From assembly GCA_948989975.1 (NCBI GenBank), contig CARHSH010000001.1, forward strand, positions 82,906-146,905: a stretch of DNA of 64,000 nucleotides. Direction: 5' to 3'. Position 1 is the stretch's first letter. The number at the start of each line of letters is the position of its first letter. This document shows positions 771 through 26,872 of the stretch, piece after piece. A model generated the notes under the pieces. It did not search any database. It was not told the DNA's origin and was given only the letters and a program-made list of their open reading frames with translations. The position numbers and the translations under genes are program-made. The DNA is from an uncultured Lachnospiraceae bacterium (GTDB taxonomy: Bacteria; Bacillota; Clostridia; Lachnospirales; Lachnospiraceae).

Positions 771-893
771 ATAAACAGAATGAATAATTTTGCTTTGGAT
801 CGTTTTTCCAATTATATAAATAAAGAGTTTTGTATTGCCCTTCCGGGTGGTTTTGCAAAGAATCATTACTGGGCATCTATGATGCGTAAATAG

Positions 894-926
894 AAAGTTG
901 ACAGTTGTCAACTTTTTTGTTTTATA
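894..926 (+). terminator. Perfect palindrome AAAGTTGACAgTTGTCAACTTT followed by a T tract; intrinsic-terminator-like, and also carries TTGACA on both strands (possible operator or -35)
   Basis: 10-bp perfect inverted repeat centred on G904, followed by TTTTTTGTTTT. It sits 40 bp upstream of the 966 start codon. Confidence 0.4.
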
Positions 927-965
927 GAACACAAGTAAAATTAAGAAGGGGATGAGAGGCTTTTA

Positions 966-2681
966 ATGGAAAATAGAATATTAGATTATGCTTGTGAACA
1001 GTTTGAGAGCCGTAATTATTGTGAAGCGTTGGAAGCGTTTGTTTTAGCTTATATGAAAGGTTATGAGCCGGAATGGGTGATTGAAAACATTTATAATTGT
1101 TATGTGGCTTGTAATGAGCTGGAATTTCGCAATGCTTATGGAAAGTGTGGGGCAGAGGTAAGCTATGAGGATTGCGTGTTGGACTTTATGCCTTATAAAG
1201 AAGGGGAATATTATATTTTTGATAAAGAGCGAAAGCAATTTATTGGAAAGTTCTTAGTTTCAGAACTAAAGATGGTTTCATCAGAGGAAGCATTAAATGA
1301 AATCGAGTTTGGCGCGGTGGCGGAAGCGTTCCATTGGAATCTGAAGGAAGAATATCAACTGCTTGCGGCGGCAAAAGACAAGAAAGTGTATGCAGTCTGC
1401 CATGAAATCAATTATATTTCTTCCTTTTATAAAATACCGGAGTTAGAAGAATATAATAAAAATGTGAAATTGTTTCAGGATTTCAGTCAGTTTCAGCAAT
1501 ATTTCCATAAAAATACGGGAGTTTATCTGCCCCGGATTTTGTCAGGGGATTTAGAGAGTGTAAAAGAATTAAATGAAATAGTTGAAGCGGAACATCAATT
1601 TAGATTAACTCCGGAGGGACGCAATACAGATCACGTATTGCTTACGATTGGGATACCTTCACGGAATAGAGGGAATCTTTTGTTAAAACGGCTGGAAAAT
1701 CTGCGGAACATAAAACTGGATGCGGAAATTGAAATTGCAATTTCGAAAAACGGCGTGGATTTCTATCAGGAAGAATATGATCAAGTGAATCAGGCGCAGG
1801 ATTCCAGAATTTGTTATTATGATCATCATAAGGATTTGGTGGCGCCTGAGAATTGGCATTTTGTGGTAGAAATGGCGCATGGGAAGTTTGTATTGCTGGT
1901 TTCGGATGAAGATGACATTATTTTAGATTCTTTAGGGCATTATCTAAAGCTGATAACGGAGTATCCGCAAGCGAGTGTGATAAGGGCAAAGTCCTGCATA
2001 TTTTATTCACGTTTATCGGAAAGATTGTATGCGGAAGGGACGGATGCATTAAAAAAAGGATTTTTGAAGCAAAATTATTTGTCAGGGTTGATTTTTCACA
2101 GGGAAAAGTTTTTAAAGCAAAATTTGCTGCGGTTAGAAAAATTCCGGGAAGAGAATTTATATTATTGCCTGTATCCGCATGAGTGGTGGTGCGCCATTTT
2201 GTCAAAAAAAGGCGTTTATATGGAAGAACCGTTTTTGTTGGTTCAGGAACGTGAGTCTGTGATTCAGGAAGAAAACTCAAAGTATATTGAAAAAGGAGTG
2301 ATAGAAGAAGGGGAGCATATTGCAAAGGGAACAAGCCTGCCGGCGTATTCTACATATGAAAGCCGCTTACAGCAGTTTTTAGGCATGATGGAATTTGTGC
2401 GTTGGATTGCGGATGGGGATAAGGAGCTTGCTTTTTTTTGCGTTGCAAGTTGTATAAGTAAAATTTTATTTCTATTGCTGCTGGCAAGGGATAGGGGGTA
2501 TGAAGTCTCAAACTTTATGAATATAGTTGATAAATTTTGCAAAATGTCTATTGAAGCAATCCGTGAGTTTGATTTTTCTGAGGAACAGCAAGTGCAGTTA
2601 TTATCAATATTAAAAACAAGCGCAATAGAAACATATGGGCAAGAGAGGGAGATTTTTGAAAAAGAACAGAATGCAGGATAG
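966..2681 (+). CDS. Putative glycosyltransferase (GT-A-like domain with an SDEDD DxD-type motif), N-terminal helical region, C-terminal domain shared with ORF 1..668
   Basis: 571-aa ORF. Central segment LLTIGIPSRNRGNLLLKRLENL...FVLLVSDEDDII resembles the GT2 nucleotide-binding/DxD region. RBS AAGGGGATGAG lies upstream. Confidence 0.45.
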   Translation: MENRILDYACEQFESRNYCEALEAFVLAYMKGYEPEWVIENIYNCYVACNELEFRNAYGKCGAEVSYEDCVLDFMPYKEGEYYIFDKERKQFIGKFLVSELKMVSSEEALNEIEFGAVAEAFHWNLKEEYQLLAAAKDKKVYAVCHEINYISSFYKIPELEEYNKNVKLFQDFSQFQQYFHKNTGVYLPRILSGDLESVKELNEIVEAEHQFRLTPEGRNTDHVLLTIGIPSRNRGNLLLKRLENLRNIKLDAEIEIAISKNGVDFYQEEYDQVNQAQDSRICYYDHHKDLVAPENWHFVVEMAHGKFVLLVSDEDDIILDSLGHYLKLITEYPQASVIRAKSCIFYSRLSERLYAEGTDALKKGFLKQNYLSGLIFHREKFLKQNLLRLEKFREENLYYCLYPHEWWCAILSKKGVYMEEPFLLVQERESVIQEENSKYIEKGVIEEGEHIAKGTSLPAYSTYESRLQQFLGMMEFVRWIADGDKELAFFCVASCISKILFLLLLARDRGYEVSNFMNIVDKFCKMSIEAIREFDFSEEQQVQLLSILKTSAIETYGQEREIFEKEQNAG

Positions 2682-2687
2682 GAAGAT

Positions 2688-3569
2688 ATGAAAACGATAT
2701 TAATTTTAGGATCAACCGGATTTATAGGGAGAAATTTAAAGGAATGGTTTGAGAAAAAGAAACAGTACACGGTTTTATGTCCTAATCGCAAAGAACTGGA
2801 TTTGCTCGATGAAAATATGGCAGATTCCTTTTTGGCGGCGCATAAAATAGATGTGGTTTTTAATTGCGCAATATTTTCTCCAAAGTCGGAAATGGAAGAA
2901 TTGGAAGTGATTGAAAAGGATTTGCGTATGTTTCTGAACCTTGAAAAAAATAAAGATAAATTTGGCAAAATGTTTTATTTTGGCTCTGGGGCGGAATATG
3001 ATAAGACAAAGCCTATTGTACAAGTGAAAGAGACGGATATTGGGAAAAGCATTCCGAAAAGCAGATATGGCATGGTAAAATATGTAATTGGACAAATGAT
3101 AGATGGATCGGATAATATCTATAATATACGGATATGGGGACTGTTTGGGAAGTATGAAGACTGGTGGACGACATTTATATCGAATTGCTGTTGTAAAGCA
3201 ATTAAGGATTACCCAATTTCCATTCGAAAAGACACGTATTTTGATTATCTTTGGATAGAGGATTTTTGCAGAATTGCCGAATGGGCAGTTGGACATGAAT
3301 TTGAGAGCCATACATACCATGCAGGGAGCGGACGGCGTATCTTACTGTCAGAAATTGCAAAAATAGTAAGGGACGTCAGCGGCAGGGAATTAGACATTAT
3401 TATTTGCAATGAGGGGCTGGGCAATGAATATACGGCGGACAGCTCACGTCTGATGAAGGAATATGGAAAAGACTATGTTACCCCTATGGAAACGGCAATC
3501 AGGGAATTGTATACATGGTATGAAACGCATCCGGAAATTATCAGTATGCAGAAATTAATATATGGTTAA
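2688..3569 (+). CDS. NAD(P)-dependent sugar epimerase/reductase (SDR family)
   Basis: N-terminal GSTGFIG Rossmann motif. Length (293 aa) and composition are typical of dTDP-4-dehydrorhamnose reductase / GDP-fucose synthase-like enzymes. Confidence 0.55.
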   Translation: MKTILILGSTGFIGRNLKEWFEKKKQYTVLCPNRKELDLLDENMADSFLAAHKIDVVFNCAIFSPKSEMEELEVIEKDLRMFLNLEKNKDKFGKMFYFGSGAEYDKTKPIVQVKETDIGKSIPKSRYGMVKYVIGQMIDGSDNIYNIRIWGLFGKYEDWWTTFISNCCCKAIKDYPISIRKDTYFDYLWIEDFCRIAEWAVGHEFESHTYHAGSGRRILLSEIAKIVRDVSGRELDIIICNEGLGNEYTADSSRLMKEYGKDYVTPMETAIRELYTWYETHPEIISMQKLIYG

Positions 3570-3597
3570 AACTTTTAGAGATTGAGAGGAATTTAAA

Positions 3598-4599
3598 ATG
3601 AACGATATTTTTGAAAACAAGTCAGTGCTGATTACCGGAGGGACAGGTTCTTTGGGAAAGTATTTTACAAGATACATTCTGACGCATTTTAATCCGCATC
3701 GGGTAGTGATATTTTCGCGTGATGAATATAAACAGAGCATGATGAAACAGGAATTTGCGCAGTATGGGGATAAGCTGAGATTTTTTATCGGTGACGTGAG
3801 GGATAAAGACAGGCTTCTAAGGGCGTTCGACAGAGTGCAGATTGTAATTCATGCAGCAGCGATTAAACAGGTGCCGACTTGTGAATATAACCCGATAGAG
3901 GCTATTAGGACGAATATTAATGGGGCGATGAATGTCATTGACGCCGCGATTGACCGGAAGGTGGAGTGTGTTGTGGCGTTGTCAACGGACAAAGCGGTGA
4001 ACCCGGTAAACTTATATGGCGGAACAAAATTAGTTTCGGACAAGCTTTTTGTGGCGGCGAATGCCTATGCAAAAATTTCAGGGACAAAGTTTAGCGTTGT
4101 CCGGTATGGAAATGTGGCGGGCAGCAGGGGAAGCGTGATCCCGTTTTTTGAGAAACTTATGGCGGAAGGAAAGACAACGCTTCCGGTGACGGACGTGCGC
4201 ATGACGCGGTTTTGGATTGATTTGGAGCAAGGGGTTAAATTAATTTTAAAAGCTTTATATACGGCTGTTGGCGGCGAAGTTTTCGTTTCTAAAATACCTT
4301 CTTTTAAAGTGACGGATTTGGTAAAAGCCATGAATCCGGATGGTTCCATTGAGGAAGTCGGTATCCGTGAAGGGGAAAAGCTGCATGAAGTAATGATTAC
4401 AGATGTAGATTCAAGAAGGACGGTTGAATTAGGGGACTGTTATGTGATTATGCCGGAATTTTCATGGTATAAGCCAAATGAAGAAATAAAAGCGGGGAAA
4501 AAGCTTCCAGATGAATTTGTTTATAGTTCAGATAAAAATACGAGCTGGCTTTCTGTGGAACAGCTTCAAGAAAAATTAAAATTATATCGAAAGAAATAG
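3598..4599 (+). CDS. pseB: UDP-GlcNAc 4,6-dehydratase/5-epimerase (first step of pseudaminic acid biosynthesis)
   Basis: Collinear similarity to Campylobacter/Helicobacter PseB (FlaA1): ITGGTGSLGK, FFIGDVRDKDRL, LSTDKAVNPVNLYGGTKL, SVVRYGNVAGSRGSVIPFF, TRFWI. Confidence 0.85.
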   Translation: MNDIFENKSVLITGGTGSLGKYFTRYILTHFNPHRVVIFSRDEYKQSMMKQEFAQYGDKLRFFIGDVRDKDRLLRAFDRVQIVIHAAAIKQVPTCEYNPIEAIRTNINGAMNVIDAAIDRKVECVVALSTDKAVNPVNLYGGTKLVSDKLFVAANAYAKISGTKFSVVRYGNVAGSRGSVIPFFEKLMAEGKTTLPVTDVRMTRFWIDLEQGVKLILKALYTAVGGEVFVSKIPSFKVTDLVKAMNPDGSIEEVGIREGEKLHEVMITDVDSRRTVELGDCYVIMPEFSWYKPNEEIKAGKKLPDEFVYSSDKNTSWLSVEQLQEKLKLYRKK

Positions 4600-4609
4600 A
4601 GGGATTCAT

Positions 4610-6067
4610 TTGGAACGGTTTGAATTAACGGAAAAAACTAAACTATGGATTTACGGGGCAGCTTTTGGAGGAACGCTCTTATATGAAAAACTGCATAAGA
4701 ATCATTATCAGGTGGAAGGGTTTATAGATAAAAGGGCAGAGGAAATAGAGAGTTTATGCGGGCTTTCCGTCTATAGCGTAAAACAAGCCAAAGAACGTAT
4801 GGGACGTGGGCAGCTAACAGTCATTATTTCAGTGAAAAATGTGTTTGAACATAGCGGCATTGCCAGAGAGTTAATAAAAAATGGAATTACAAACATCATT
4901 TATAAGCCATATGCGGCTCTGAAAGGATTTGCAGACGAATCAGCAAAAGAAATGTTTGAGCTTCATAATCAGTTGATTGATTGCGGCTTTTGTAAGGGCG
5001 GCAGGTTTTGCAGGGCGGACGAAATAGAAAAGAATTGGGAAATCCCAAAAGAATATTTGCTGGCCAAAGATTCCAAAATGCAGACAGTTTTTCTGCCTCT
5101 GCCTATGCTGTTTGAAAACCAAAGCGTTACGGGCGGATATAAGGAACGGAATGTTTGTTTTTTATATCCGCATATACAATTCTTCCGGTATCTTCAAGGA
5201 GAAGCTGACGCTTCCTGCCAGCGCTATCTGGAGTATTGTGAGATGGCAGTGGAAGAATTGGATTCTTTTCAAGTTACGGAAGCGTGGAAAGAAAATGTGA
5301 TCCGAAACAGGGCAGATGTGTTTTACCAGATGAACCATGGGTTTTTGTTCCAGAAAGATTTTTTTGTCAGAAATTCGCCAGAGGCGGAATGGAATGAGGA
5401 CGGATACTTTAACTTGAAAAGCGGGAAGCACAGAGCGGCATTTTTTGCCGCCCGCCGTCAGATGTATATTCCCGTAAAGATCACTCATTCGGATGCAGAA
5501 AAATGGATTTCTGAGGATAGGGCAAATGAGGTGAAAAAAGAGCTTTTACAACAGGGCGTATTTGAATTAAAAGCTCCGGTTGAGCATCCATTTTTTTATC
5601 AGATGCCATGTACGGCAGAGAATTTTTTCTATGGCGTATGCTGCGCGTTGGCAGATGAACTCGGCGGGTTGTATTATCAAACGCCAATGGATCATGTATT
5701 GAAAGGCAAAAAGATATATTTGAATGTAGATGATTATGGGTTTGTCAGCCGTTTTTTCAGGAGAAGCGGGGCTATGGTATACGATGCCGATGAAAGGGAC
5801 CGGAAATTGAAAGAAGCGTTAGAAAGATTGTTTTCGCTTCATTTTGGAAGGCTTGTCGCCGCTCAGGAACATTACGACTTGGCGGTGTTTAAAACAGACT
5901 GCCCGCAAAATTTGAAGCAATGTCTGGAAACTATTTTGGCGGATCATTATTTTATCCTTGCCCCAGAGAGCATTTTGTTGGAAACTGAGTGGATAAAAAG
6001 AGTTTATTGTGGGGCTGCATGGGGAAAAAGCATGGTTTTGTGGCATTTGGAGAAATGTAATGTTTGA
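4610..6067 (+). CDS. Uncharacterised protein, paralog 1 of 3: NeuD/PglD-N-like Rossmann N-terminus plus central ParB/sulfiredoxin-like motif SGKHR
   Basis: 485 aa. N-terminus LWIYGAAFGG...YQVEGFIDKRAEE resembles the N-domain of NeuD/PglD acyltransferases. Motif FNLKSGKHRAAFFAARRQMYIPV resembles the ParB/Srx DGhHR-A-P signature. Homologous to 6060..7490 and 8555..9784. Confidence 0.5.
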   Translation: MERFELTEKTKLWIYGAAFGGTLLYEKLHKNHYQVEGFIDKRAEEIESLCGLSVYSVKQAKERMGRGQLTVIISVKNVFEHSGIARELIKNGITNIIYKPYAALKGFADESAKEMFELHNQLIDCGFCKGGRFCRADEIEKNWEIPKEYLLAKDSKMQTVFLPLPMLFENQSVTGGYKERNVCFLYPHIQFFRYLQGEADASCQRYLEYCEMAVEELDSFQVTEAWKENVIRNRADVFYQMNHGFLFQKDFFVRNSPEAEWNEDGYFNLKSGKHRAAFFAARRQMYIPVKITHSDAEKWISEDRANEVKKELLQQGVFELKAPVEHPFFYQMPCTAENFFYGVCCALADELGGLYYQTPMDHVLKGKKIYLNVDDYGFVSRFFRRSGAMVYDADERDRKLKEALERLFSLHFGRLVAAQEHYDLAVFKTDCPQNLKQCLETILADHYFILAPESILLETEWIKRVYCGAAWGKSMVLWHLEKCNV

Positions 6068-7490
6068 CATTCAAAAAGAGAGCAGGATAGTCCTTTACGG
6101 GCATTCGCAATTTGACATTGTGAAAGATAAATTCCGGGAACTAAAAGAACGTGGATATCAGGTGCTTGGATATATAGATCAAAGGGCAAAAGAGATTGAA
6201 ACGTATGTACAGGCGCCTTGTTGGACAGTAGAAGATTTTCCAGTTGGGCTAAAAGAACGTCAAGACATCGTAATTATATTGTTATTGCAAAATGCGCGGA
6301 TGCATGAGTCCATTGTATCTTCACTTTGCGGCAGGGGATTTAAAAAATTTTTATTTTTACCGGAAAAAGCGGATACATCTGAGAAAACATGTATGGTGCA
6401 AAAGTACAATGCCTTTATACGGTCAGAATATGATGAGTTGATGGGGATTCCTGAATGGGACAGCTTGTGTTTAAATTCTGTAAAAGGTGGAAAGCGGTTT
6501 TTGAAATGTGGAAAAGAACGCTGTACGCTTTTGGTTCCGGTGGAAATGCTGTTTCTTTATGAACAGGAGCAGTCTTTAGAAGAAAATATCGCGTTTGCAG
6601 AGGATTATCTGGAATTATTTGCGGTATTAGAAGGAAAGGCATTTGAATGCGGACGTTATTTTAATTTCATGGGAGCGGTGGAGAAGGAAGAAAAAGAAAA
6701 ATTACTGGCTGACCGTTTGGCGTTATATTGTTTGTGGGAACATTACAGACACTGCGATATAAATTATTTTATAGAAGCGGCTGCGCTTGTTTCATGGAAC
6801 CGGAGAGGATATTTTAATATTATTGACGGGCATCATAGAGTGATTTATCTGATGGCAAAGGGGTATAAGAAGATTCCCGTATCCATGCCGCTTAAAGATT
6901 ATGATAAGTGGATAGGAGAGGCAGATCAGGCATTGTCCGCTGCGCTGCGCAGATTGCGCGTCCCAATTCCACATCCGTTTTTTTTGAATGAAGAATGTAT
7001 CTATGAAACGCACTGGCAGAAAGTGATTCATTATTTATATGCGGCAGGACAAAGCAGGGACTGCAGGTTTGTGGAAATAGATACTTATATGGGATATTAT
7101 GCGGGGGCTTTCCAGAGAATTGTAAAAAAAGAAGCTCTGATAGTTTTAGAGAATGAGACGGATAAACGCTTATGTGAAAGTATGCAAAGGCTCATGCATC
7201 AAAAAATACCCATTTTGAACTATCCAGAAGTTATGTTTCGCGAAACCGATCTTGTCTATCTGAAATTGGCTGGAAATGAGGAAGCGTCTTTTATGCGTTT
7301 TATAAAGGACGTAACTGGACAGTGTATTTTGCTGGATATTCCTTGGGAAGAAGAAGGGAAGACGTTAAAAGAGGCTGTCCGCATTCTTGGGGGAGATTTG
7401 AAACAGATAGGCAGTTATCATAGAGATAAGGCGTATGGAATTTATGTGATTGAAAGGAGTGTTGGCAATTATGGCAGAGGTGACGACTAG
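6060..7490 (+). CDS. Uncharacterised protein, paralog 2 of 3 (NeuD-N-like plus ParB/Srx-like DGHHR)
   Basis: Start ATG at 6060 overlaps the stop of paralog 1 by 8 nt (RBS GGAGAAATG). Motifs: IVLYGHSQF...YQVLGYIDQRAKEIE; FNIIDGHHRVIYLMAKGYKKIPV. Confidence 0.5.
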   Translation: MFDIQKESRIVLYGHSQFDIVKDKFRELKERGYQVLGYIDQRAKEIETYVQAPCWTVEDFPVGLKERQDIVIILLLQNARMHESIVSSLCGRGFKKFLFLPEKADTSEKTCMVQKYNAFIRSEYDELMGIPEWDSLCLNSVKGGKRFLKCGKERCTLLVPVEMLFLYEQEQSLEENIAFAEDYLELFAVLEGKAFECGRYFNFMGAVEKEEKEKLLADRLALYCLWEHYRHCDINYFIEAAALVSWNRRGYFNIIDGHHRVIYLMAKGYKKIPVSMPLKDYDKWIGEADQALSAALRRLRVPIPHPFFLNEECIYETHWQKVIHYLYAAGQSRDCRFVEIDTYMGYYAGAFQRIVKKEALIVLENETDKRLCESMQRLMHQKIPILNYPEVMFRETDLVYLKLAGNEEASFMRFIKDVTGQCILLDIPWEEEGKTLKEAVRILGGDLKQIGSYHRDKAYGIYVIERSVGNYGRGDD

Positions 7491-8496
7491 AAGCCTTAAA
7501 AATGAAAGGACAATACTGCGGGACGTTGTCCCGGTGGACACGCCTTTTTTATTAGGCATATTTTTAGGCGATATATGTAATTTTAAATGTAAATACTGCA
7601 TTCAGTCTGCAGATGAATCCGTTGAGGAGAAAAAACAGTTAGTAAGGAAATTTTTAGAGTGGGAAACATTTCTTAAAATTGCAGATTCTGCAAAACAATT
7701 TCCGAAGAAAATTAAAACGGTATTGCTGACAAGCATCGGGGAGCCTTTACTGCATCCGGAAATTGTAAAGATGTTAGAGTATATGAACCGGATTGGGCTG
7801 GCGGATAACTATGAAATCATTACAAATGCATCTATGCTTTCTGTAGATTTGGGAAGACAATTAGTGGATGCAGGGCTTACAAGATTATGCGTTTCGCTTC
7901 AGGGGCTGACGGCGGAAAAATATAAAGACGTCTGCGGCGTAGAGATAGACTATGATGCATTTTACCAAAATTTAAAGAGTTTTTACGAATACAGCAGGGG
8001 AAAGTGCAGCGTACATATTAAGACAGTGGATCTTTCGTTAGAGGACGGTGAAGAAGACGCATTTCTAAAACTCTATGGTCCGATATGCGACACGATTTAC
8101 ATTGATAAAGTCGCTCCGGTGTTTAAAGGCGTAGATTATAGCGGCATTGTGCTTGACGGGGAGCCTTATACAGAAGATAAATACAGGCAAAATGCGGCTG
8201 TGTGCTGTAGTTCTATTTTTTATACATTGTATACGCTTGCGGACGGACGGATCGCTCCTTGTTGTGACCATCCGCAGCCGGTTATTTATGGGGACATTAA
8301 CCAGACTGGGCTTGTGGAAGCATGGTCTTCTGAAAATAGAAAACGGTTTTTAAGACAGCATTTGACCCATAAAAGATGCGAAAACGGCATTTGCGCACAG
8401 TGCGCCGCGCCGCTTGTAAGAGAGTTTGACAGTGATAAGTTAGATGGCTGTGAGGAAGCAATCTTGGCCCGTTTAGAGGGGGGTATTTTTCATTAA
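7471..8496 (+). CDS. Radical SAM enzyme with C-terminal SPASM/twitch-type Cys-rich domain
   Basis: CNFKCKYC (Cx3Cx2C) near the N-terminus. C-terminal cysteines CCSS...CCDHPQP...CENGICAQC. RBS GGAG sits 12 nt upstream of ATG 7471; the track's alternative start is TTG at 7450. Confidence 0.7.
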   Translation: MAEVTTRSLKNERTILRDVVPVDTPFLLGIFLGDICNFKCKYCIQSADESVEEKKQLVRKFLEWETFLKIADSAKQFPKKIKTVLLTSIGEPLLHPEIVKMLEYMNRIGLADNYEIITNASMLSVDLGRQLVDAGLTRLCVSLQGLTAEKYKDVCGVEIDYDAFYQNLKSFYEYSRGKCSVHIKTVDLSLEDGEEDAFLKLYGPICDTIYIDKVAPVFKGVDYSGIVLDGEPYTEDKYRQNAAVCCSSIFYTLYTLADGRIAPCCDHPQPVIYGDINQTGLVEAWSSENRKRFLRQHLTHKRCENGICAQCAAPLVREFDSDKLDGCEEAILARLEGGIFH

Positions 8497-8554
8497 CGAG
8501 AAGAAATTTAGTTTTCAAGATGCAGAAGAAGTTTATATATATGGCGCATCTTAT

Positions 8555-9784
8555 ATGGGTTCCGTCACAGGAAAAGCTTTGTTGGAAAATGGAAAGCGGA
8601 TATGTGGGTTTATAGACAAACGGGCAAAGGACATACGCCAATGCATCGGGTATCCGGTCTATGACATTGAGACATTGAAAAAGAAAGCGGGCAGACACGC
8701 TGTGATTTTTGTGGCGGTGAAAAATGTTTTTTATCATATGGACATTGCAGTGGAATTGTACGCAAATGGCTTTGAGAGAATTATATATAAGTCATGCCAT
8801 GCCATTCATGGAACGATGTCAGGGGAAGAACAGTTATTAGATAAGGCGTATGAACTGATATATAAAACAGGGGACATTCCGGATTTTGAGATACCTATTG
8901 TACTGCCAAAACAGGAATTTCAATGGACGCCAAGCAGGATTCTTTTAGAAACAGAGGAATATGTGACATTGAACGCGCCGTTAGAACAGATTTATACGGG
9001 AGTGACTGCGGCGAAATGGACAAATACGCCCGTTTTGTCATTAATTCCGTATATTGAACTGTTCCGTTATTTTGAAGGGGACAGCCAGTGCAGGCCAGAT
9101 GATTATATTGCGCTTTGTGAGGAAGGGGCGCGGAGTGAACAGATTGAAATAACGGATAGTTGGAAGCAATATGCGCTCGAAAACCGGTTTCATATTTTCG
9201 GGCAAATGCGGTGGCAGTATGAACATGAACCTGAGTTTTTTACCGTACAGGCGCCAGAGGCGGCATGGGACAAAAGGGGATATTTCCGCCTGCTGACCGG
9301 CAAGCACAGGATTTGTTTTTTGATTGCGATGGGAAAGACAAGCGCGCCGCTGAAAATTCGCAAAGACACATGGAGGGCGATCTGTGAAGATCCTAAATTA
9401 CATGAAATCCGCCAGATCTTAGAACGCAGCCCAAATGCGCAAATGCCGCTTCCGCACATTTATTTTCAGGGAAACCGGCAGTTTCATTGTATATTTTATC
9501 AAAAAAAGCTGAGAGAGATTTATTGGCAGATGTACAAAACCGGACAAATGTGTGGGCAGGAAAGAGAAACTTTAGAAATTCTCGATCAGACGCAGGACAG
9601 CGGATATTTTTCCCTGATATTTTCACAGATGGGCTTTTGCGTCTACAGGGATTTCAGGCTGTCTTCCGATAAGAATGAAATTTATCAGAAATTGGGAATG
9701 AAAATTTCAGAACGGGCAGATAGCGCTTCAAAAACGCGGATAAAGCTGGATGGGGAGGGAAATTTTCAAAATGAAAACGACTGA
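8555..9784 (+). CDS. Uncharacterised protein, paralog 3 of 3 (ParB/Srx-like TGKHR); N-terminal Rossmann motif partly lies upstream of the only in-frame ATG
   Basis: FRLLTGKHRICFLIAMGKTSAPL. The in-frame upstream codons encode EEVYIYGASY, which aligns to LWIYGAAFGG in paralog 1, but there is no ATG/GTG/TTG between the stop at 8474-8476 and ATG 8555. Confidence 0.45.
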   Translation: MGSVTGKALLENGKRICGFIDKRAKDIRQCIGYPVYDIETLKKKAGRHAVIFVAVKNVFYHMDIAVELYANGFERIIYKSCHAIHGTMSGEEQLLDKAYELIYKTGDIPDFEIPIVLPKQEFQWTPSRILLETEEYVTLNAPLEQIYTGVTAAKWTNTPVLSLIPYIELFRYFEGDSQCRPDDYIALCEEGARSEQIEITDSWKQYALENRFHIFGQMRWQYEHEPEFFTVQAPEAAWDKRGYFRLLTGKHRICFLIAMGKTSAPLKIRKDTWRAICEDPKLHEIRQILERSPNAQMPLPHIYFQGNRQFHCIFYQKKLREIYWQMYKTGQMCGQERETLEILDQTQDSGYFSLIFSQMGFCVYRDFRLSSDKNEIYQKLGMKISERADSASKTRIKLDGEGNFQNEND

Positions 9785-11315
9785 TTTAGAGTTTGAATAC
9801 AATGAGCGGGCAGACGGCTATATTTATGTGAATGAAGACAAGTTAGAAACAGAGGTAAAAGAATTGCTCCGGTCGGGAAAAGACGTTGAAGCGCTGCGCA
9901 TGAACGAAGAAATTTCAAGGGAGGCCTATCTGTGCCTTACAAAAAAACGGGAAGCTGTTTTAAAGTGGTACCATTTCAAAGAAGAATCTGAGATTTTAGA
10001 GATTGGAGCCGGATACGGGGAACTGACAGAATATCTTTGCCGCCACAGCAGGCATGTGACGAGTTATGAGAGGAAAACCGAGCGCGCCGACATTATTAAA
10101 ATGCGCTGCCAGCCATATGGGAATTTGGACTGCCATTCCGGTTTATTACAAGATATGCGTTGGCAAAAGACATATGATTATATATTTTTGCATGATATTT
10201 TAGCATTATCCCGAAAGTTTTTTAAAGGGGAAGATGCAAGCGTAGAGATGCTTAAGTTTTTGCTTCCATATCTTAAAGAAGACGGAAAATTTATCATAAC
10301 GGTTGAAAACCGTCTTGGGCTTAAGTATTTTGCCGGGGCGGCAGAAGAAATTTCCTCACAGTTTTTTTGGGGGCTTAATCTTTTTGACGAAGATGAAAGA
10401 GGCAGGACATTTTCAAGAAAAGAATTGGAACGGGTTCTGCAAAAAAGTGGTTTAGAAAATATAAATTGGTTTTATCCGTATCCTGATTTGGCATATCCGT
10501 TAGAGATTTATACAGATGAAGTCATGGATAAAATGGGATATGGGATCTCTATGCCGGATTATGAAATTGTTTCAGACCGTTATCAGTTTTTTGATGAGCA
10601 GAGAATGTTTTGGGCTTTAAGGAACGAGGGGATTGCAAATCGGTTTGTGAATGCGTTTTTTGTGGAATGTTCCAGAAAAGAATCCGGCAAACAGCTTTTA
10701 TTTGCGGATTTAAAAAATGGATTTACCATAAAGGAACAGACAGAACAAGGCTTTATAGACGGGAGTGGGAATCTTCTTCCTAAAGGGGAACGGCTCGATG
10801 TGTATCTGGCAGGAAAACTTCAGGAAACCGTGAATTGCAATCTGGGCGGCAAGAATCCATTTATATCTGAAATTTATGATGTGTTCCGTGAAATATATTT
10901 GTATTTACAGAAGTCTTTTTGCAGGATACAGGATTTCTATTATTCAGACGGCAAGATTGCGCTGCATGAACAAAAGCAAGAGAAAAAACCGGCGTCGGAG
11001 TATTGGCGCTGGGAATTGGTTTATGAATGGTATTTCAGGCATGTCATGTTTTACAGAAACGCAAAAAGAAGAATTTTGCTGGAAGATTTGCTGGAGATTG
11101 TACAGGTAAACACCGGGCATATTGCAGAATATTTGAAGGTTTGGAAAGATAAGTCAGAGAAGCATTATATTACGCCGAGATTGTCGCAGAATATGTTTGA
11201 TTTTGAAGCGGAAGCGGCAAAGGATGCGAGGTATTTTGGGCAGGAACTAATAAATAAAAGGACATTAAAAGATAAATTGGAAAGTATGTGGAGCATAGGC
11301 GGGGAAACGGAATGA
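9771..11315 (+). CDS. Class I SAM-dependent methyltransferase with ~300-aa C-terminal extension of unknown function
   Basis: LEIGAGYGELTEYL (motif I) and DYIFLHDIL. RBS GGGGAGGG upstream of ATG 9771. Overlaps the end of the preceding gene. Confidence 0.55.
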   Translation: MKTTDLEFEYNERADGYIYVNEDKLETEVKELLRSGKDVEALRMNEEISREAYLCLTKKREAVLKWYHFKEESEILEIGAGYGELTEYLCRHSRHVTSYERKTERADIIKMRCQPYGNLDCHSGLLQDMRWQKTYDYIFLHDILALSRKFFKGEDASVEMLKFLLPYLKEDGKFIITVENRLGLKYFAGAAEEISSQFFWGLNLFDEDERGRTFSRKELERVLQKSGLENINWFYPYPDLAYPLEIYTDEVMDKMGYGISMPDYEIVSDRYQFFDEQRMFWALRNEGIANRFVNAFFVECSRKESGKQLLFADLKNGFTIKEQTEQGFIDGSGNLLPKGERLDVYLAGKLQETVNCNLGGKNPFISEIYDVFREIYLYLQKSFCRIQDFYYSDGKIALHEQKQEKKPASEYWRWELVYEWYFRHVMFYRNAKRRILLEDLLEIVQVNTGHIAEYLKVWKDKSEKHYITPRLSQNMFDFEAEAAKDARYFGQELINKRTLKDKLESMWSIGGETE

Positions 11316-12178
11316 AAGAGTTGACAAAGGAGATTATCCAATATATCGGCGCGGTCAAAAAGGAGTATGAAAAGAGGTATCATATCCAGATTTTAATGTG
11401 GACAGTGAGAAAATCATTTCTGAGGGGCTTGGAACGAAAGACAAGTGATTTGGACGTTGTGTTTGTGTTCCAAAATTTAGATTCAAAGAAGAAAAAAATT
11501 ATCTTTGAGCGCGCAGACCGCAGAATTGAGCTGCAATGCTGGGACATACAGGATATATTGGAAATCATTGCTGAGAATAAAAGGCGATCTTTACAGGAAA
11601 AGAAGTTTTTCCCATACTATAAAAGCAATGAGTTGAAACATTATATTTTGGATTATTACCATGGCTTTTATGCCGGCTGGGATTCTGCGCTGATGAAAGA
11701 TGAGTATGGATTTTGCCAAAATTGCGGGAAACATATCTTTCATCTTTATGAACCGTTTGTTGTGGCAAATATGTTGTATTTGGATTTAAAAGGGCAGTGT
11801 AAACGCGTCGAAATGGGGTATTGGCTGTCTTTAAATGAATACATTAATGCTATCTGGTCAGGGTTAGCGGGGCTTCATGCGCTTTCAAATGGCAGGCCTT
11901 CCGATACGCAGATACGGTTTTTGGCGGAAACGTATCTGAACGGGGAGGAGGCCAAAATGCTACTAAGCTATGTTGCGCATTTTAAACAGACAGTCCAAAA
12001 GCAGAGTAATTACTGCAATATGGAAGCGTTAAACCAAATGCTTTTGGATCTTAAGCTTAGGTTGGAGAAAAAAATGAAACAGTTTAACATACAAGAGATT
12101 GACATAGAAAAAGAACTTTTGGATATTGAAGGTCAATTAAAGGAAATGAGGAATGTTTATGAAAATTCAAGTTGCTGA
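11312..12178 (+). CDS. Pol-beta-superfamily nucleotidyltransferase-fold protein
   Basis: RGLERKTSDLDVVFVF matches the G[SG]x9-13DxD nucleotidyltransferase signature. ATGA stop/start overlap with the upstream gene. Confidence 0.45.
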   Translation: MKELTKEIIQYIGAVKKEYEKRYHIQILMWTVRKSFLRGLERKTSDLDVVFVFQNLDSKKKKIIFERADRRIELQCWDIQDILEIIAENKRRSLQEKKFFPYYKSNELKHYILDYYHGFYAGWDSALMKDEYGFCQNCGKHIFHLYEPFVVANMLYLDLKGQCKRVEMGYWLSLNEYINAIWSGLAGLHALSNGRPSDTQIRFLAETYLNGEEAKMLLSYVAHFKQTVQKQSNYCNMEALNQMLLDLKLRLEKKMKQFNIQEIDIEKELLDIEGQLKEMRNVYENSSC

Positions 12179-13964
12179 TTATGTTGCGCAGTTTTTAATG
12201 GAAAAAGGAATTACGGATCTTTTTTCAGTAGTAGGCGGCGGCTCGATGTTTCTAAATGATGCGTTTGGGAGGGCAAAAGGCATACGCTGTATTTATAACC
12301 ATCATGAGCAGGCCTGCGCCATGGCGGCAGAAGCTTATTTTAAGTATAAAAACCAAATGGCGGCTGTCTGCGTGACGTCAGGGCCGGGCGGGACAAATGC
12401 TCTGACAGGGGTTCTTGGCGCATGGCAGGATAGCATCCCGTTATTTATTATTTCCGGACAGGTTCGTTATGAGACAACGGTAGACAGCGCAGGACTTTCT
12501 TTGCGGCAGTTTGGGGGACAGGAGCATCAAATTGTGGATACTGTCAAAAATATAACGAAGTATGCGGCAATGGTGAAAAAAGCGGAAGACGTCAGATGGC
12601 ATTTGGAAAAAGCGTATGATATGGCAATGGATGGAAGACGGGGGCCGGTTTGGCTGGATATTCCATTAAATGTGCAGAGCGCTGAAATTGAAACGGAATC
12701 GTTAAAAGGGTTTCAGAAACCTGAGAAAGACACAGAGAAGGCAAAAGGGTATGTAGATTCTATTTTGGAAGAATTAAAGAAGGCGGAACGGCCGTTAATC
12801 ATAGCGGGTTCCGCAGTCCGGACTTCCGGCGCGCAAGACGTTTTTCTCAGGCTGTTGGAACGGCTGCATATTCCGGTGACATATCCTCTGGTCGTGTCCG
12901 ATTTGGTAAGCAATGAGAATCGTCAGGCGGTAGGCTGTTTTGGAGGGGCAGGGACGAGAGCCGGAAATTTTGCAGTCCAAAATGCGGATTTACTGCTTGT
13001 GTTTGGATGCAGAATGGCATTTTCCCATATTGGGTTTAATTATGAAAAATTTTCTCCGGCTTCCAGAAAGATTGTAGTAGACATAGATGAGGCGGAACAG
13101 TCAAAACCCACGATGAAACGCGATATAAAAATATTGGCAGACGTACGGGATATACTTGAAGAAATGGAAAAGCGTGATTTATGCGGTATGCCTTCCTATC
13201 CAAAATGGAATGCGTATTGTCAGGAATTAAAGAAAAGATTTCCGATCTATCAAAAGCATCATGAAACAAGCGAAGATGGAAGGGTCAATCCTTATTTTAT
13301 GGCAAAAGCATTGTCGGATCGTATGGATGAACATGGCATTATCGCGCTTGGCAATAGTTCGGGATTAGATCCAAAACTTCAGTATGGCATAGAGAAACAA
13401 GGGGAACGGGTTATTTTAAATTGTAACTGCGGTTCTATGGGATACTGCCTTCCGGCAGGCATTGGCGCCGCGGCGGCTTCGGGCAGACGGGTGGTTGTAT
13501 ATACAGGGGACGGATGTATGCAGATGAACATACAGGAGCTTTTAACCATTTCTCACAATAAACTTCCGGTAAAAATCATTGTGCTGAATAATAAAGGATA
13601 TGGCGGAGTGGTCGCTACGCAGACTAATTTTTTCGATGGGCATCTGTGCGGCTGTACGGAGGAATCCGGCATCAGTATGCCGGACTTTGAAAAGCTTGCG
13701 TATGCGTATGGATTTCAATATGTCAGGGCCGAGAACCATGAGCAGGTAGAAAAGGCTTTGGATGCATTATTATGTGATGACGCCCCGGCAATATGTGAGG
13801 TGTATCAAGATATGATTCAGGGGATTGAACCTAGGGTTTCAAGCAGGAAGTTAGAAGATGGGACATTGGTTTCAACCGGAATTGATGACTTAGCCCCATT
13901 CCTTCCTTTAGAAGAATATGAGGCCTGCCAATATGAGAATTGGGTGAAAGGCGGAAAAGAATGA
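12153..13964 (+). CDS. Thiamine-diphosphate-dependent enzyme of the acetolactate synthase / YerE-like carboligase family
   Basis: 603 aa. N-terminal TPP-enzyme pyrimidine-binding domain (VVGGGSMFLND, CVTSGPGGTNALTG). C-terminal TPP-binding GDGCMQMN...LNNKGYGGV. Confidence 0.7.
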   Translation: MFMKIQVADYVAQFLMEKGITDLFSVVGGGSMFLNDAFGRAKGIRCIYNHHEQACAMAAEAYFKYKNQMAAVCVTSGPGGTNALTGVLGAWQDSIPLFIISGQVRYETTVDSAGLSLRQFGGQEHQIVDTVKNITKYAAMVKKAEDVRWHLEKAYDMAMDGRRGPVWLDIPLNVQSAEIETESLKGFQKPEKDTEKAKGYVDSILEELKKAERPLIIAGSAVRTSGAQDVFLRLLERLHIPVTYPLVVSDLVSNENRQAVGCFGGAGTRAGNFAVQNADLLLVFGCRMAFSHIGFNYEKFSPASRKIVVDIDEAEQSKPTMKRDIKILADVRDILEEMEKRDLCGMPSYPKWNAYCQELKKRFPIYQKHHETSEDGRVNPYFMAKALSDRMDEHGIIALGNSSGLDPKLQYGIEKQGERVILNCNCGSMGYCLPAGIGAAAASGRRVVVYTGDGCMQMNIQELLTISHNKLPVKIIVLNNKGYGGVVATQTNFFDGHLCGCTEESGISMPDFEKLAYAYGFQYVRAENHEQVEKALDALLCDDAPAICEVYQDMIQGIEPRVSSRKLEDGTLVSTGIDDLAPFLPLEEYEACQYENWVKGGKE

Positions 13965-14872
13965 AACTTTGTTTAGGGACTGTCCAACAGGGATTGGAAT
14001 ATGGGATTAATAATAAGTATGGAAAGCCTTCAAAAGAGTATAGCCAAAAAATCTTTTACGAAGCGGTAAAGCATGGGATTACAATGTTTGATACGGCAAG
14101 GGCATATGGAGATGCAGAATTGCTTTTGGGGGAATATTTAAAAGAACATGGGAATCGAAATGAAATCAAGATCATATCAAAACTCCGTCCGAACATACTA
14201 GAAGGTTGTAAGGATATATACGATACGATATGCCGGGAATGTGAAGGCACTTTAAAGCGGATAGGCGTAGAATCCTTAGACGGATATTTGCTCCATACGC
14301 CGGAGTACATCCGAGATCCCAAAGTCGTTTCGGCTCTTTTAAAATTAAAGGAGGAGGGATATGCTTCGCATATAGGCGTATCCATTTACAATATAGAAGA
14401 CGGGGACGTTGCAATCAATACGGGGGCAGTTGACTATATACAGCTTCCTTTTAGCATATTTGACCAGCGCGGAAAAAACAGCGGATTTCTCCGGCGGGCA
14501 AAAGAAGCCAAAATTACGGTATTTGCAAGAAGCATATTTTTGCAGGGATTGTATTTTATGGATGCGGGCAGTCTGCCGGAAAAAGTGAAACGGGCAGAGC
14601 CTATGCTGCGGAACTGGGAGCTGATTTTAGAGGAGCGTCACGCCAATCGGGAAGAAGTCTTAATTGAATTTGTGAAACAGTCCAAAGAGATTGATTATCT
14701 TGTGTTTGGAGTAGACACAGTGGAACAGTTACAAAGAGATATTTCTGTATTCGAAAGCGAAAGTAAATTAGATGAAACTATTTGGAACATAATCGGTGAA
14801 AAATTTTCCGATGTGGAGGAAAGCATTATAATACCAAGTTTATGGGCGAAACAAGAAAGGAAGGGAAAATGA
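13961..14872 (+). CDS. Aldo/keto reductase family oxidoreductase
   Basis: FDTARAYGDAE, LDGYLLH, IGVSIYN: AKR signatures. ATGA overlap with the TPP enzyme. Confidence 0.7.
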   Translation: MKLCLGTVQQGLEYGINNKYGKPSKEYSQKIFYEAVKHGITMFDTARAYGDAELLLGEYLKEHGNRNEIKIISKLRPNILEGCKDIYDTICRECEGTLKRIGVESLDGYLLHTPEYIRDPKVVSALLKLKEEGYASHIGVSIYNIEDGDVAINTGAVDYIQLPFSIFDQRGKNSGFLRRAKEAKITVFARSIFLQGLYFMDAGSLPEKVKRAEPMLRNWELILEERHANREEVLIEFVKQSKEIDYLVFGVDTVEQLQRDISVFESESKLDETIWNIIGEKFSDVEESIIIPSLWAKQERKGK

Positions 14873-15571
14873 TGGGAGCAAAAAACATTTTTTTAACGAC
14901 AGAAGGGGACGCATGGTATAGGAGAAACCGTGAAAAGTTAGAAGAAGAAAGTGGATTTTCGGCGGTGGATTTAATGATTGATTTTCTAAATAGACAAAAA
15001 AAATCTCTGGGGGGGGGTAAATGGCTTTTCGTGGGATAAGCTGAATATTTTGGAAATCGGGTGTAGTTATGGATATAATCTGGCAAAGTTTTGCGAATCA
15101 TTTTCTTGTCAATGTTATGGAATTGAACCGTCAAAAGAAGCGGTAGAAGATGGAAATAGAAGATATAAGGATCTGCCAATTCAATTAACTCAGGGAACAG
15201 GGGATCTTTTGCCGTATGAGGCGGAATCTATGGATGTGGTTATAATGGGATTTTGCATGTTGTGGATGGAGCGGAAAGACATATTGCAGGCATACGCGCA
15301 AGCAGACAGAGTTTTGAAAACAAATGGGATTATGATGGTTTATGATTTTGATGCGAAAATGCCATATCTTAGGGATAATATCCATAATAGAGAAGTGTTT
15401 ACATATAAAATGGATTATGCGCAGCCGTTCATGGCTTTTCCAAACTATTATTTAATGGATAAGACCGTATTTTGCCATATGGGAAATTTTTTTGACAAAA
15501 GAATACAGGAAAGAATATCTTTGCAGATTTTATATAAAGAGTCTTTGGAGGATGCGTATAGGAAAGGATAA
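14869..15571 (+). pseudogene. Class I SAM methyltransferase (paralog of 15598..16293) split into 65-aa and 173-aa pieces by a +1 frameshift at a G9 tract; candidate phase-variable (currently OFF) gene
   Basis: Upstream frame gives MMGAKNIFLTTEGDAWYRRNREKLEE...FLNRQKKSLGGGKWLFVG*. The +1 frame directly after the G tract gives VNGFSWDKLNILEIGCSYGY, collinear with the intact paralog (MNGFAWERFKILEVGCSYGY). Removing one G (G8) restores a single ORF. Confidence 0.7.
15009..15017. repeat. Homopolymeric G9 tract inside a coding sequence (slipped-strand mispairing site)
   Basis: ctgGGGGGGGGtaaatgg. The paralog carries aagagcggtatgggaatgaatgg at the equivalent site, i.e. no homopolymer. Confidence 0.9.
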
Positions 15572-15597: not shown

Positions 15598-16293
15598 GTG
15601 GAGGCAAAGGAGATATTCTTAACGACAGAAGGGGACGCATGGTATAGAAGAAACCGTGAAAAACTGGAAGAAACAAAAAATTTTATTGCGGCAGAGATAA
15701 TCATAGAATTTTTAAACAGACAAAAGAGCGGTATGGGAATGAATGGCTTTGCATGGGAGCGTTTTAAGATTTTAGAAGTCGGATGCAGTTATGGTTATCA
15801 TTTGGCAAAGTTTTGTGAAGCGTTTCCCTGCCAGTGCTATGGAATTGAGCCGTCAAAAGAAGCGGTGGAAGACGGCAGTCATAAATATAAAGGCCTGCCT
15901 ATGCAGTTAGTTCAGGGGACAGGTGATTCTCTGCCATATGAAGCGGAATCTATGGATATTGTCATTATGGGGTTTTGTATGTTTTGGATGGATAGAAATC
16001 ATCTGCTGCAGGCGTATGCGGAAGCGGACAGGGTCTTAAAACCAAAGGGATTGCTTATAATTTATGATTTTGACACGAAGCTTCCCTATGTCAGAGACAA
16101 TGCGCACAGTAAAGATGTGGATACATTTAAAATGGATTATGCAAAAGCGTTGACGGCTCTGCCGCATTATTACTTAATGGATAAAACGGTGTTTTGCCAT
16201 AAAGGAAATTATTTTGATGAAGATATACAGGAAAGGATTTCCATGCAGATTCTTTATAAGGAGGATTTCAAAGATGCATATATCAGAGGGTGA
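15598..16293 (+). CDS. Class I SAM-dependent methyltransferase (intact paralog)
   Basis: LEVGCSYGYHLAKF, DIVIMGFCMFWMDR, LKPKGLLIIYD. ~60% identical to the frameshifted copy. Confidence 0.65.
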   Translation: MEAKEIFLTTEGDAWYRRNREKLEETKNFIAAEIIIEFLNRQKSGMGMNGFAWERFKILEVGCSYGYHLAKFCEAFPCQCYGIEPSKEAVEDGSHKYKGLPMQLVQGTGDSLPYEAESMDIVIMGFCMFWMDRNHLLQAYAEADRVLKPKGLLIIYDFDTKLPYVRDNAHSKDVDTFKMDYAKALTALPHYYLMDKTVFCHKGNYFDEDIQERISMQILYKEDFKDAYIRG

Positions 16294-26212: not shown

Positions 26213-26872
26213 ATGAATGATATTATCCTAATCGGCTCTGGAGGCTGTATGCGGGAGCTGGTCTGGCAGATACAGCAGTTGAACGGGGAATGCCGTGTAT
26301 GGAATATTTTAGGCTATGTTGACAAAGCCGATCGGTCCGGCGTTTCCGACATAAAAGTTTCCGGCCAGAGCATTCCCTATCTTGGCGGAGATGACTTCCT
26401 TTTACGCCGGACCGAACAGACGAATGCCGCTATATGTGTCGGGAATCCTTCCTTACGGAAAAAAATTGCCAAGAACATACAGAAAAACCCGCATATCTGT
26501 TTTCCTAATTTAATTTTAGGCAATGTAAAAATCTGCTCTGACGTACAAATCGGGAAAGGCTGTATTATCAGTATGGACGCCCGTATTTCTACGAATGTTG
26601 CATTGGGGGATTTTGTTTTTTTAAATATGGGAAGCGGGATCTGCCATGACGGAAAAATTGGAAATTATGTCACATTAAGCCCAGATGTGCGTCTTGCCGG
26701 AAACGTAACCGTGGAAGAAGGCTGTGACATTGGCATGGGAGCAAAGATTATACAGGGCAGGCATATCGGTGCAAATGCAGTGATCGGGGCAGGAAGCGTC
26801 GTCATCACTGACATAGCGGCTGGCTGCATGGCGGCCGGCGCGCCGGCAAAGGAGAAGAAGAAAAAAATATGA
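26213..26872 (+). CDS. NeuD/PglD-family hexapeptide sugar N-acetyltransferase (LegH-like)
   Basis: IILIGSGGCMRELVWQI...ILGYVD N-domain, plus left-handed beta-helix repeats (GNVTVEEGCDIGMGAKIIQGRHIGANAVIGAGSVV). Confidence 0.7.
   Translation: MNDIILIGSGGCMRELVWQIQQLNGECRVWNILGYVDKADRSGVSDIKVSGQSIPYLGGDDFLLRRTEQTNAAICVGNPSLRKKIAKNIQKNPHICFPNLILGNVKICSDVQIGKGCIISMDARISTNVALGDFVFLNMGSGICHDGKIGNYVTLSPDVRLAGNVTVEEGCDIGMGAKIIQGRHIGANAVIGAGSVVITDIAAGCMAAGAPAKEKKKKI

Follow-up and report, generated by a model that had tools for sequence, protein, structure and literature searches.

What do three paralogous proteins of no annotated function do within a sugar-biosynthesis island? The question is raised by a 64,000-nucleotide stretch of an uncultured Lachnospiraceae genome (assembly GCA_948989975.1, contig CARHSH010000001.1, forward-strand positions 82,906 to 146,905; hereafter the window), in which the initial annotation, made from the sequence alone, described three tandem copies of an undescribed protein that joins a NeuD/PglD-like N-terminal segment to a motif resembling ParB and sulfiredoxin (Srx), and suggested that they modify an intermediate of the pseudaminic acid (Pse) or legionaminic acid (Leg) pathway. 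We refer to the copies as paralogs A, B and C. They are undescribed, as claimed: all three are named ‘hypothetical protein’ in the public annotation of a metagenome-assembled genome (Eubacterium sp., MCI9426215.1, MCI9426212.1), no Pfam or NCBIfam model covers their central domain, and we found no paper linking a ParB-like protein to pseudaminic, legionaminic, nonulosonic-acid or flagellin-glycan pathways. A 2026 paper on Pse in Clostridium mentions none of these genes, and a 2025 survey of the ParB-CTPase fold (PMC12704722) mentions no sugar, flagellar or PglD contexts. A, B and C are an unannotated branch of a wider family of three-domain, putatively glycan-tailoring proteins, and their sequences and surroundings suggest that the family is probably a heteromeric, nucleotide-dependent sugar-tailoring enzyme. 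The genes and their parts are as follows, in window coordinates; A-type and B-type denote the two sequence classes described below.

4610..6067, plus strand: paralog A (485 aa, TTG start), A-type
4610-4924, plus strand: N-domain of paralog A (aa 1-105)
5057-5617, plus strand: ParB/Srx-like domain of paralog A with its helical insert (aa ~150-336)
5423..5434, plus strand: P-motif (Box II, GxxR) of paralog A, G272-K273-H274-R275
5618-6064, plus strand: methyltransferase-like C-domain of paralog A (aa 337-485)
6060..7490, plus strand: paralog B (476 aa, ATG 6060, reading frame open from 6009), B-type
6828-6839, plus strand: DGHHR motif of paralog B
8492..9784, plus strand: paralog C, an extra A-type-derived copy (409 aa from the annotated ATG 8555, 430 aa from the probable start ATT 8492)
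9296-9307, plus strand: TGKHR motif of paralog C

The three proteins are true but old paralogs. BLASTP aligns A with C over 383 columns at 28% identity (E 9e-40), A with B over 416 columns at 24% (E 5e-28) and B with C over 368 columns at 22% (E 8e-16), a slightly deeper divergence than the 25-35% first estimated by eye. Nor are the genes strictly tandem: A and B overlap by 8 nt, and a gene for a radical S-adenosylmethionine (SAM)/SPASM enzyme splits B from C. Both shared motifs are found in all three copies as described, the N-terminal one reading IYGA...GFIDKRAxEI and the central one YFNLKSGKHRAAFF..IPV in A, YFNIIDGHHRVIYL..IPV in B and YFRLLTGKHRICFL..APL in C. In a 69-member alignment of the family, Y15, G16, D40, R42, H81, F252, G272, H274 and R275 (A numbering) are invariant, and conservation exceeds 90% in the KNVFEH and FNLxSGKHR blocks. 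The extra cysteine-containing segments ascribed to the copies dissolve at the family level, as C210 is present in 100% of A-type members, C334 in 76%, and no further cysteine is conserved; a metal-binding cysteine cluster was rejected on this ground. Used as the sole query, paralog A yields no significant match in Pfam, NCBIfam or the PDB. A word-based homolog search with paralog B recovered 8 proteins, because B-type sequences diverge too fast; a 476-aa protein (P0239) is 99% identical to paralog B. An exhaustive profile search puts the family at 549 cluster representatives at E <= 1e-30, and at 1,445 at E <= 1e-3.

Across genomes, the family was followed in 34 loci from species-representative genomes and several from metagenome assemblies, using simple open reading frame (ORF) calling and protein clustering. 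Its 77 members in 38 loci split cleanly into 41 A-type and 36 B-type genes; paralogs A and C are A-type, and paralog B is B-type. The A-type signature (YGA/D.R/KNVFEH/H188/C210/W226/N229/N233/R234/SGKHR) is near-identical in every locus, whereas B-type members are far more variable and carry DG[HLMNQ]HR. Both types occur in 34 of the 38 loci, the exceptions including two contigs shorter than 4 kb, and they are adjacent in 29 (25 in the order B-A, four as A-B). The two types are an ancient pair, and paralog C is an extra copy of the A-type; the window does not hold three equivalent copies. Their co-occurrence and adjacency suggest that A-type and B-type proteins may form an obligate hetero-oligomer, and we consider an A/B heteromer about evenly probable.

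Each full-length protein is built from three domains, whose fold assignments we hold with high confidence. The ParB/Srx fold of the central domain, which the initial annotation had proposed, is supported by a predicted structure and by motif invariance, not by membership of a curated model. The full model has a predicted local distance difference test score (pLDDT) of 92.4 and a predicted template-modelling score (pTM) of 0.89, and Foldseek ranks Srx, PadC, Noc, KorB, SbnI, SerK and ParB at the top, with weak E-values of 0.06 or above; Osa and Spo0J appear further down the list in a structure comparison by another method. When a profile of the central domain was compared with the PDB, the sole match was SbnI (E 0.11, 54 residues around the P-motif, DG.HR...PV), in which DGVHR aligns with G272-x-H274-R275. 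In the ParB-CTPase fold, the GxxR P-motif of Box II contacts the nucleotide phosphates and defines nucleotide binding (PMC12704722). The G-x-H-R block matches this Box II motif and the predicted structure agrees, which supports the fold. Conservation of the arginine is complete, since G272, H274 and R275 stay invariant in the 69 members and after methyltransferase-bearing outgroup proteins are added, where the joint alignment leaves P163, G272, H274, R275 and P323 without exception. Curated models come close without passing: PFIN (the Osa family) matches 17 of 36 members weakly, at best with 18 bits against a cutoff of 27, ParBc_2 matches B-type members with at most 14 bits against 23.6, and paralog B matches the NCBIfam models of SbnI and SerK at E 0.021 and 0.066 (~12-14 bits against cutoffs of 350-380). 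The domain is interrupted by a helical insertion, with helices between residues ~186 and 247 and conserved PH, Y..YC and T..WK.NVI.NR elements. A short helix (251-254) and a DFFxRNAP loop, which holds the invariant F252, precede a β-strand about where Box I would be expected. This loop resembles the GFFKP and EFFLPTS loops of ATP binders (PMC12704722), and no equivalent of Box III was identified.

Known carriers of the ParB/Srx fold are DNA-segregation clamps, sulfiredoxin, two serine kinases and, lately, assorted fusion proteins; the present family differs from each of these. It scores only ~14 bits against the SbnI (Staphylococcus, PDB 5uje/5ujd) and SerK (Thermococcus, PDB 5x0b) models, whose equivalog cutoffs are 350-380; the C-terminal domain of these kinases is absent from it, and it has instead an extra N-terminal Rossmann domain, the helical insertion, a methyltransferase-fold C-domain and the A/B pairing. 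Sulfiredoxin is a single-domain protein repair enzyme, and the catalytic cysteine of its GCHR motif is replaced by lysine in the A-type, A and C included, and by histidine in B, the position being variable across the B-type.

The N-terminal domain is a Rossmann domain of the PglD_N type, as had been recognized from its resemblance to NeuD/PglD. Some homologs exceed the Pfam PglD_N gathering score of 23.4 (31.3 and 31.7 bits). Like the PglD/NeuD N-acetyltransferases (PF17836), the paralogs have an N-terminal Rossmann-like domain with a Gly-rich loop and a GFIDd motif; unlike them, they lack the left-handed β-helix (hexapeptide) acyltransferase domain. Hexapep matches are absent from A, B and C but present in the genuine PglD-type gene of the window (26213..26872), and an acetyltransferase role was discarded for want of this domain. 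The PglD_N/C2185-like (PF22674) Rossmann domain is itself a promiscuous module in glycan loci (L015, L020, L036, L041, L042 and others), where its fusion partners include FkbM methyltransferase, radical SAM, pyruvyl transferase, GT1/GT4 glycosyltransferases and a sulfatase-type enzyme.

The ~150 C-terminal residues, at first described as belonging to no recognizable family, have a class-I methyltransferase fold, recognized by structure and by homology to annotated SAM-methyltransferases. A tblastn search of plasmids matched a Paenibacillus ‘methyltransferase domain-containing protein’ to residues 177-390 of A (28% identity, E 5e-21), and homologs of that protein are named ‘class I SAM-dependent methyltransferase’ and match Pfam Methyltransf_23/25/11. 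Such methyltransferase-bearing relatives occur in Paenibacillus, Fontibacillus, Bacillus, Methylorubrum, Hyphomicrobiales and Planctomycetia, and some of them (P0359, P0361, P0367) also have the N-terminal C2185-like/PglD_N-like domain. The Paenibacillus/Fontibacillus/Methylorubrum proteins (e.g. WP_152403578.1; P0320-P0388) are homologous to A in both the ParB/Srx-like part and the C-domain, share with it PVELLFT, PH..L, WN..GYFN..DGHHR, IPV and HP.F, and are likewise encoded in glycan loci with the ParB-like part unannotated; in contrast to A and B, they are single genes, not pairs, and their C-domain is intact and recognized by Pfam. The wider family is already annotated as methyltransferases, and ParB-fold/methyltransferase fusions as such are already known. 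Fusions of the ParB-CTPase fold to a SAM-methyltransferase bind ATP, and binding is lost when the GxxR arginine is changed to alanine (PNAS 2025, PMC12704722). These fusions have the same domain order, the ParB fold followed by a class-I methyltransferase, but they are found by Pfam ParB models, which the present family escapes, and are mostly phage- or DNA-related, whereas the present family has the N-terminal Rossmann domain, the helical insert, glycan loci and a decayed SAM site. The likeness to WbdD, a bifunctional kinase-methyltransferase that caps the E. coli O9a antigen, is limited to the generic methyltransferase fold, as the WbdD kinase is protein-kinase-like and not ParB/Srx.

In A, B and C, the C-domain appears to be a decayed methyltransferase. 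The outgroup C-domains retain DIGxxxGYY...GA.VtGvE.D, LLTVFYH and WESG; their glycine loop reads DIGCNIG, and the corresponding segments are NVDDYG in A, EIDTYMG in B and LDQTQDSG in C. No GxGxG or motif I SAM loop was found conserved across the family. Mean column conservation of the A-type is 0.52 in the N-domain, 0.52 in the ParB/Srx domain and 0.30 in the C-domain, and the latter is wholly missing from nine of the 36 B-type proteins. The joint alignment, the loss of the loop and the low conservation point to descent from ParB-like/methyltransferase proteins in which the SAM site was apparently given up, and selection is now focused on the N-domain and the ParB/Srx domain with its helical insert. 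These data bear directly on the reading that the proteins are still SAM-dependent methyltransferases, in which the C-domain would methylate the sugar or a substituent and the ParB/Srx domain would only bind the NDP- or CMP-sugar handle or allosteric ATP, in the manner of other ParB-methyltransferase fusions. Their ancestry is in keeping with such a role, but the methyltransferase part is the least conserved of the three, its DIGxxxG loop is replaced in all three paralogs, some B-type members dispense with it, and separate intact methyltransferases are encoded alongside, one of them in a form fused to an A-type member; we consider continued methylation unlikely.

The genes around the paralogs give the family its setting. 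In the window, the surrounding module comprises the following:

3598..4599, plus strand: PseB, the inverting UDP-GlcNAc 4,6-dehydratase (TIGR03589, 508.4 bits against 407.75), at the upstream edge of the inserted module
7450..8496, plus strand: radical SAM/SPASM enzyme between B and C (Pfam Radical_SAM E 7.3e-18, SPASM E 2.8e-08)
9750..11315, plus strand: class-I SAM methyltransferase MT521 (521 aa; Pfam Methyltransf_23, intact motif I ILEIGAGYG, KsgA-like motif alignment, long C-terminal extension)
11288..12178, plus strand: Pol-beta-superfamily nucleotidyltransferase-like protein (296 aa; NTP_transf_2 E 0.0018), which fills the place that the RlaP-type nucleotidyltransferase takes after the pair
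12153..13964, plus strand: YerE-like carboligase dependent on thiamine diphosphate (ThDP), with JanthE (8rph, E 1.6e-100) as best PDB match against 6e-69 for acetohydroxyacid synthase
13940..14872, plus strand: aldo-keto reductase (NCBIfam KidO/AKR matches; Aldo_ket_red also in L001 and L038)
16214: KdsB-like cytidylyltransferase, below every NCBIfam cutoff

An ortholog locus has the order flagellin, small ORF, Maf, family 2 glycosyltransferase (GT2), epimerase, PseB, A, B, radical SAM enzyme and C, followed by methyltransferase, nucleotidyltransferase, ThDP enzyme, aldo-keto reductase, methyltransferase and cytidylyltransferase. The ortholog in this flagellin-Maf locus (L001) is 52% identical, the radical SAM gene occupies the same place in L001 and L003, and the flagellin gene of the ortholog locus indicates that the window belongs to a flagellin glycosylation island. 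The Maf and flagellin genes, being upstream in L001, would fall just outside the window. The island ends near 33,047, ahead of riboflavin and biotin genes, and three activated-sugar pathways are encoded within it (3598-33047):

3598 (PseB), 18414 (PseI), 19470 (PseG), 20481 (PseC) and 21622 (GNAT): Pse pathway, with PseB, PseI, PseG and PseC above equivalog cutoffs
22156-26172: CDP-3,6-dideoxyhexose pathway (CDP-glucose 4,6-dehydratase, RfbH set)
26213..26872 (PglD-type acetyltransferase), 26869 (NeuB-type synthase) and 27855 (2-epimerase): pathway to a Leg/Neu-type nonulosonic acid (NulO), part 1
28991 (PseF-like cytidylyltransferase), 29767 (CBS-NTP transferase), 30867 (dehydratase) and 31860 (aminotransferase): the same NulO pathway, part 2

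Among the collected loci, all 38 are sugar loci with operon-like packing. A Pol-beta nucleotidyltransferase, either RlaP (PF10127; cluster c3, 48.3 bits) or the 296-aa NTP_transf_2-like type of the window, is present in 29 of them and mostly lies directly downstream of the pair. The other partners are short-chain dehydrogenase/reductase (SDR) dehydratases or epimerases (28/38), the YerE-like ThDP enzyme (20-25 loci, at the higher count 25/38), NeuB-type synthases (16/38) and radical SAM/SPASM enzymes (16/38), and RfbF, RfbH and the CDP-dehydratase occur in ~14-15 of 30. True Pse genes stand beside the family in only four of ~30 loci. These counts dispose of a Pse-specific role and loosen the tie to Pse/Leg that the position of the genes in the window had suggested. 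On that proposal, the proteins would depend on an NTP to activate or amidate a substituent of a Pse or Leg intermediate. It draws on the location of the genes between PseB and PseI/G/C, on the use of ATP for phosphoryl transfer by the fold relatives Srx, SerK and SbnI, and on the NeuB-type synthases near the family in ~16 of 38 loci. However, the ThDP, CDP-dideoxyhexose and Pol-beta nucleotidyltransferase genes are more constant companions than Pse genes, and nothing points to amidation specifically, so that we regard this proposal as improbable.

The same survey speaks to the notion that the three are ParB-like proteins serving DNA binding, partition or defence, placed in a glycan island by chance. 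Such a role could be read from the resemblance of the fold to ParB, KorB, Noc and Osa, and from one locus (L038, 12564-17341) in which an A-type/RlaP pair is followed just downstream by AAA_15/AAA_21, DUF4062 and AbiH-type defence-like genes. The helix-turn-helix and C-terminal dimerization domains of the ParB/KorB/Noc clamps, however, were not detected by Pfam in A, B, C or their homologs, in which Rossmann and methyltransferase folds flank the central domain instead. PADLOC and PHROGs gave no match for A, B or C, no viral relatives were found in 2.9 million viral contigs, and every locus carries sugar genes; the glycan context of the initial annotation holds, and we consider such proteins extremely improbable here. 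Both the context and the domain content led us to set aside a role in defence or as a DNA-binding ParB. The defence-like genes of L038 probably mark the edge of a glycan island and not a functional link.

Outside the window, two proteins of 1,064-1,068 aa (P0180, P0195) consist of an MT521 homolog fused to an A-type member (34% identity, E 1e-44). By Rosetta-stone logic, these fusions link MT521 and the A-type in function and imply that the two act together. They also suit a further reading, in which the family members are non-catalytic pseudoenzyme adaptors that hold the activated sugar or dock MT521, the radical SAM enzyme and the nucleotidyltransferase into a multi-enzyme assembly; the fusion of the PF22674/PglD_N-like N-domain to many different enzymes in like loci, the decayed methyltransferase site and the fast divergence of the B-type all agree with it. 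Against this, a large set of polar residues that lie outside the P-motif is nearly invariant in the A-type (K76, N77, E80, H81, H188, C210, W226, N229, N233 and R234), a pattern that suggests an active site more readily than a docking surface, and purely adaptor proteins seem to us quite unlikely.

Taken together, a nucleotide-dependent enzyme of glycan tailoring is the fairly probable function of the family. In the mechanism that we infer, A and B would assemble into the hetero-oligomer, with A as the catalytic subunit, in which the N-domain site (YGA, D40/R42, KNVFEH), the residues of the helical insert and K273-H274-R275 are nearly invariant. The ParB/Srx pocket would bind a nucleotide, ATP or CTP, as in SerK, SbnI and Srx, which are the enzymatic precedents of the fold and all ATP-dependent phosphotransferases (PMC12704722). 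Alternatively, the pocket could bind the cytidine-nucleotide handle of a CDP- or CMP-activated sugar, an idea that fits because canonical ParB prefers CTP and because CDP-hexose and CMP-NulO genes lie nearby. In either case, the complex would tailor an activated sugar of the flagellin glycan by a reaction of the phosphoryl- or nucleotidyl-transfer type, and would work in concert with the adjoining nucleotidyltransferase, methyltransferase and radical SAM enzymes. Activated phospho-substituents are commonly built by a kinase and a nucleotidyltransferase acting in succession, e.g. LicA/LicC. As a whole, this explanation (a three-domain glycan-tailoring family, an A/B heteromer and a nucleotide-dependent transfer step) is tentative and not far short of evenly probable. 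Phosphoryl transfer specifically, as suggested by analogy with the kinases of the fold, is doubtful. Rather more doubtful is the fuller version, in which A/B would be a two-subunit ParB/Srx-fold enzyme, derived from a sugar methyltransferase through loss of SAM binding, that phosphorylates or otherwise activates a nucleotide-linked sugar or its substituent at the expense of ATP or CTP and passes the product to the Pol-beta nucleotidyltransferase.

Several points weigh against an A/B enzyme of this kind. The loci were fetched with A-type peptide patterns and stem largely from one family, Lachnospiraceae, which makes the co-occurrence counts phylogenetically correlated and not independent, and the ground for the hetero-oligomer is gene adjacency alone. 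All family members fall below the curated thresholds of the ParB-type Pfam and NCBIfam models, and according to the 2025 survey (PMC12704722) nucleotide binding is not predictable from sequence, nor is nucleotide specificity from sequence or AlphaFold3. Finally, descent from SAM-methyltransferases may leave room for residual methyltransferase activity or for a pure adaptor role.

The presence of the ParB/Srx fold in at least ~550 sequence clusters of flagellin and surface-glycan loci would carry this fold into glycobiology. If A and B are indeed a two-subunit ATP/CTP enzyme, it would be the first catalyst of this fold in glycan biosynthesis and would install a new kind of decoration on the flagellin glycans of gut Lachnospiraceae. 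The invariant GxHR arginine offers a testable handle. These gut bacteria are the hosts of the family and their flagellins are prominent immune antigens; to our knowledge, the flagellin glycans are chemically uncharacterized. The set formed by A/B, the nucleotidyltransferase, the YerE-like ThDP enzyme and the radical SAM enzyme suggests an unusual sugar chemistry, perhaps with acyl branches or phospho-substituents. For enzyme evolution, the family would be a case in which a methyltransferase domain decays while its accessory nucleotide-binding domain becomes the conserved core.

Some features of the window merit separate description. The ‘acetolactate synthase-like’ ThDP enzyme is closest to JanthE, a sugar-branching carboligase that has been described as a YerE-like enzyme (PMC12188165), and co-occurs with CDP-glucose 4,6-dehydratase, RfbF and RfbH genes (22156-26172) and with an aldo-keto reductase gene. 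This suggests, as a component of the flagellin glycan, a yersiniose-like acyl-branched 3,6-dideoxyhexose or another branched sugar built by ThDP chemistry, and the aldo-keto reductase is a possible reductase partner of the ThDP enzyme.

The start of paralog C, which was found only in the window, L001 and L003, is unusual. There is no canonical start codon for its conserved N-terminus (8477-8560), and the in-frame codons 5' of ATG 8555 encode the conserved ‘VYIYGAS’ strand-loop element. ATT 8492 overlaps the stop codon of the radical SAM gene (cATTaa) and lies 8 nt past a strong GAGGGGGG Shine-Dalgarno sequence, and in the L003 ortholog (~7884) the ATTAA arrangement recurs, with an N-terminal peptide of equal length. 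Judged from these sequences, the true start of paralog C almost certainly lies upstream of ATG 8555 and is probably ATT 8492, and the public 409-aa annotation is probably too short. In L001 (~13790-13940), a TAATG start and the main ORF lie in different frames, the offset being one unit of a (TA)8 tract. In the window, the tract at 8534-8542 is shorter, (TA)4-5, and an ATG at 8520, itself out of frame, would enter the frame upon loss of one TA unit. Paralog C may therefore use a non-canonical start, phase variation, or both.

Two partial copies of genes are also present in the window. The class-I methyltransferase genes at 15050..15571 and 15598..16293 (window 14873-16293) are tandem and close paralogs; the former lacks the N-terminal ~58 residues and has stop codons upstream in their place, and is therefore a truncated or decaying duplicate. 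At the start of the window, a 208-aa ORF (42-668) is similar to the C-terminal half of the GT2 glycosyltransferase (571 aa) encoded next, at 966-2681, with YLSG..R...F, HEWW and SYATYESRL..F as common blocks, and is a second copy that is cut or partial. A scan for promoters and terminators gave counts close to the shuffled expectation and was hence uninformative. Throughout positions 1-20000, the GC skew of the plus strand is strongly positive (0.21-0.38 in each 1-kb window) and nearly all genes lie on that strand, which fits a co-oriented operon block on the leading strand of a Firmicute.

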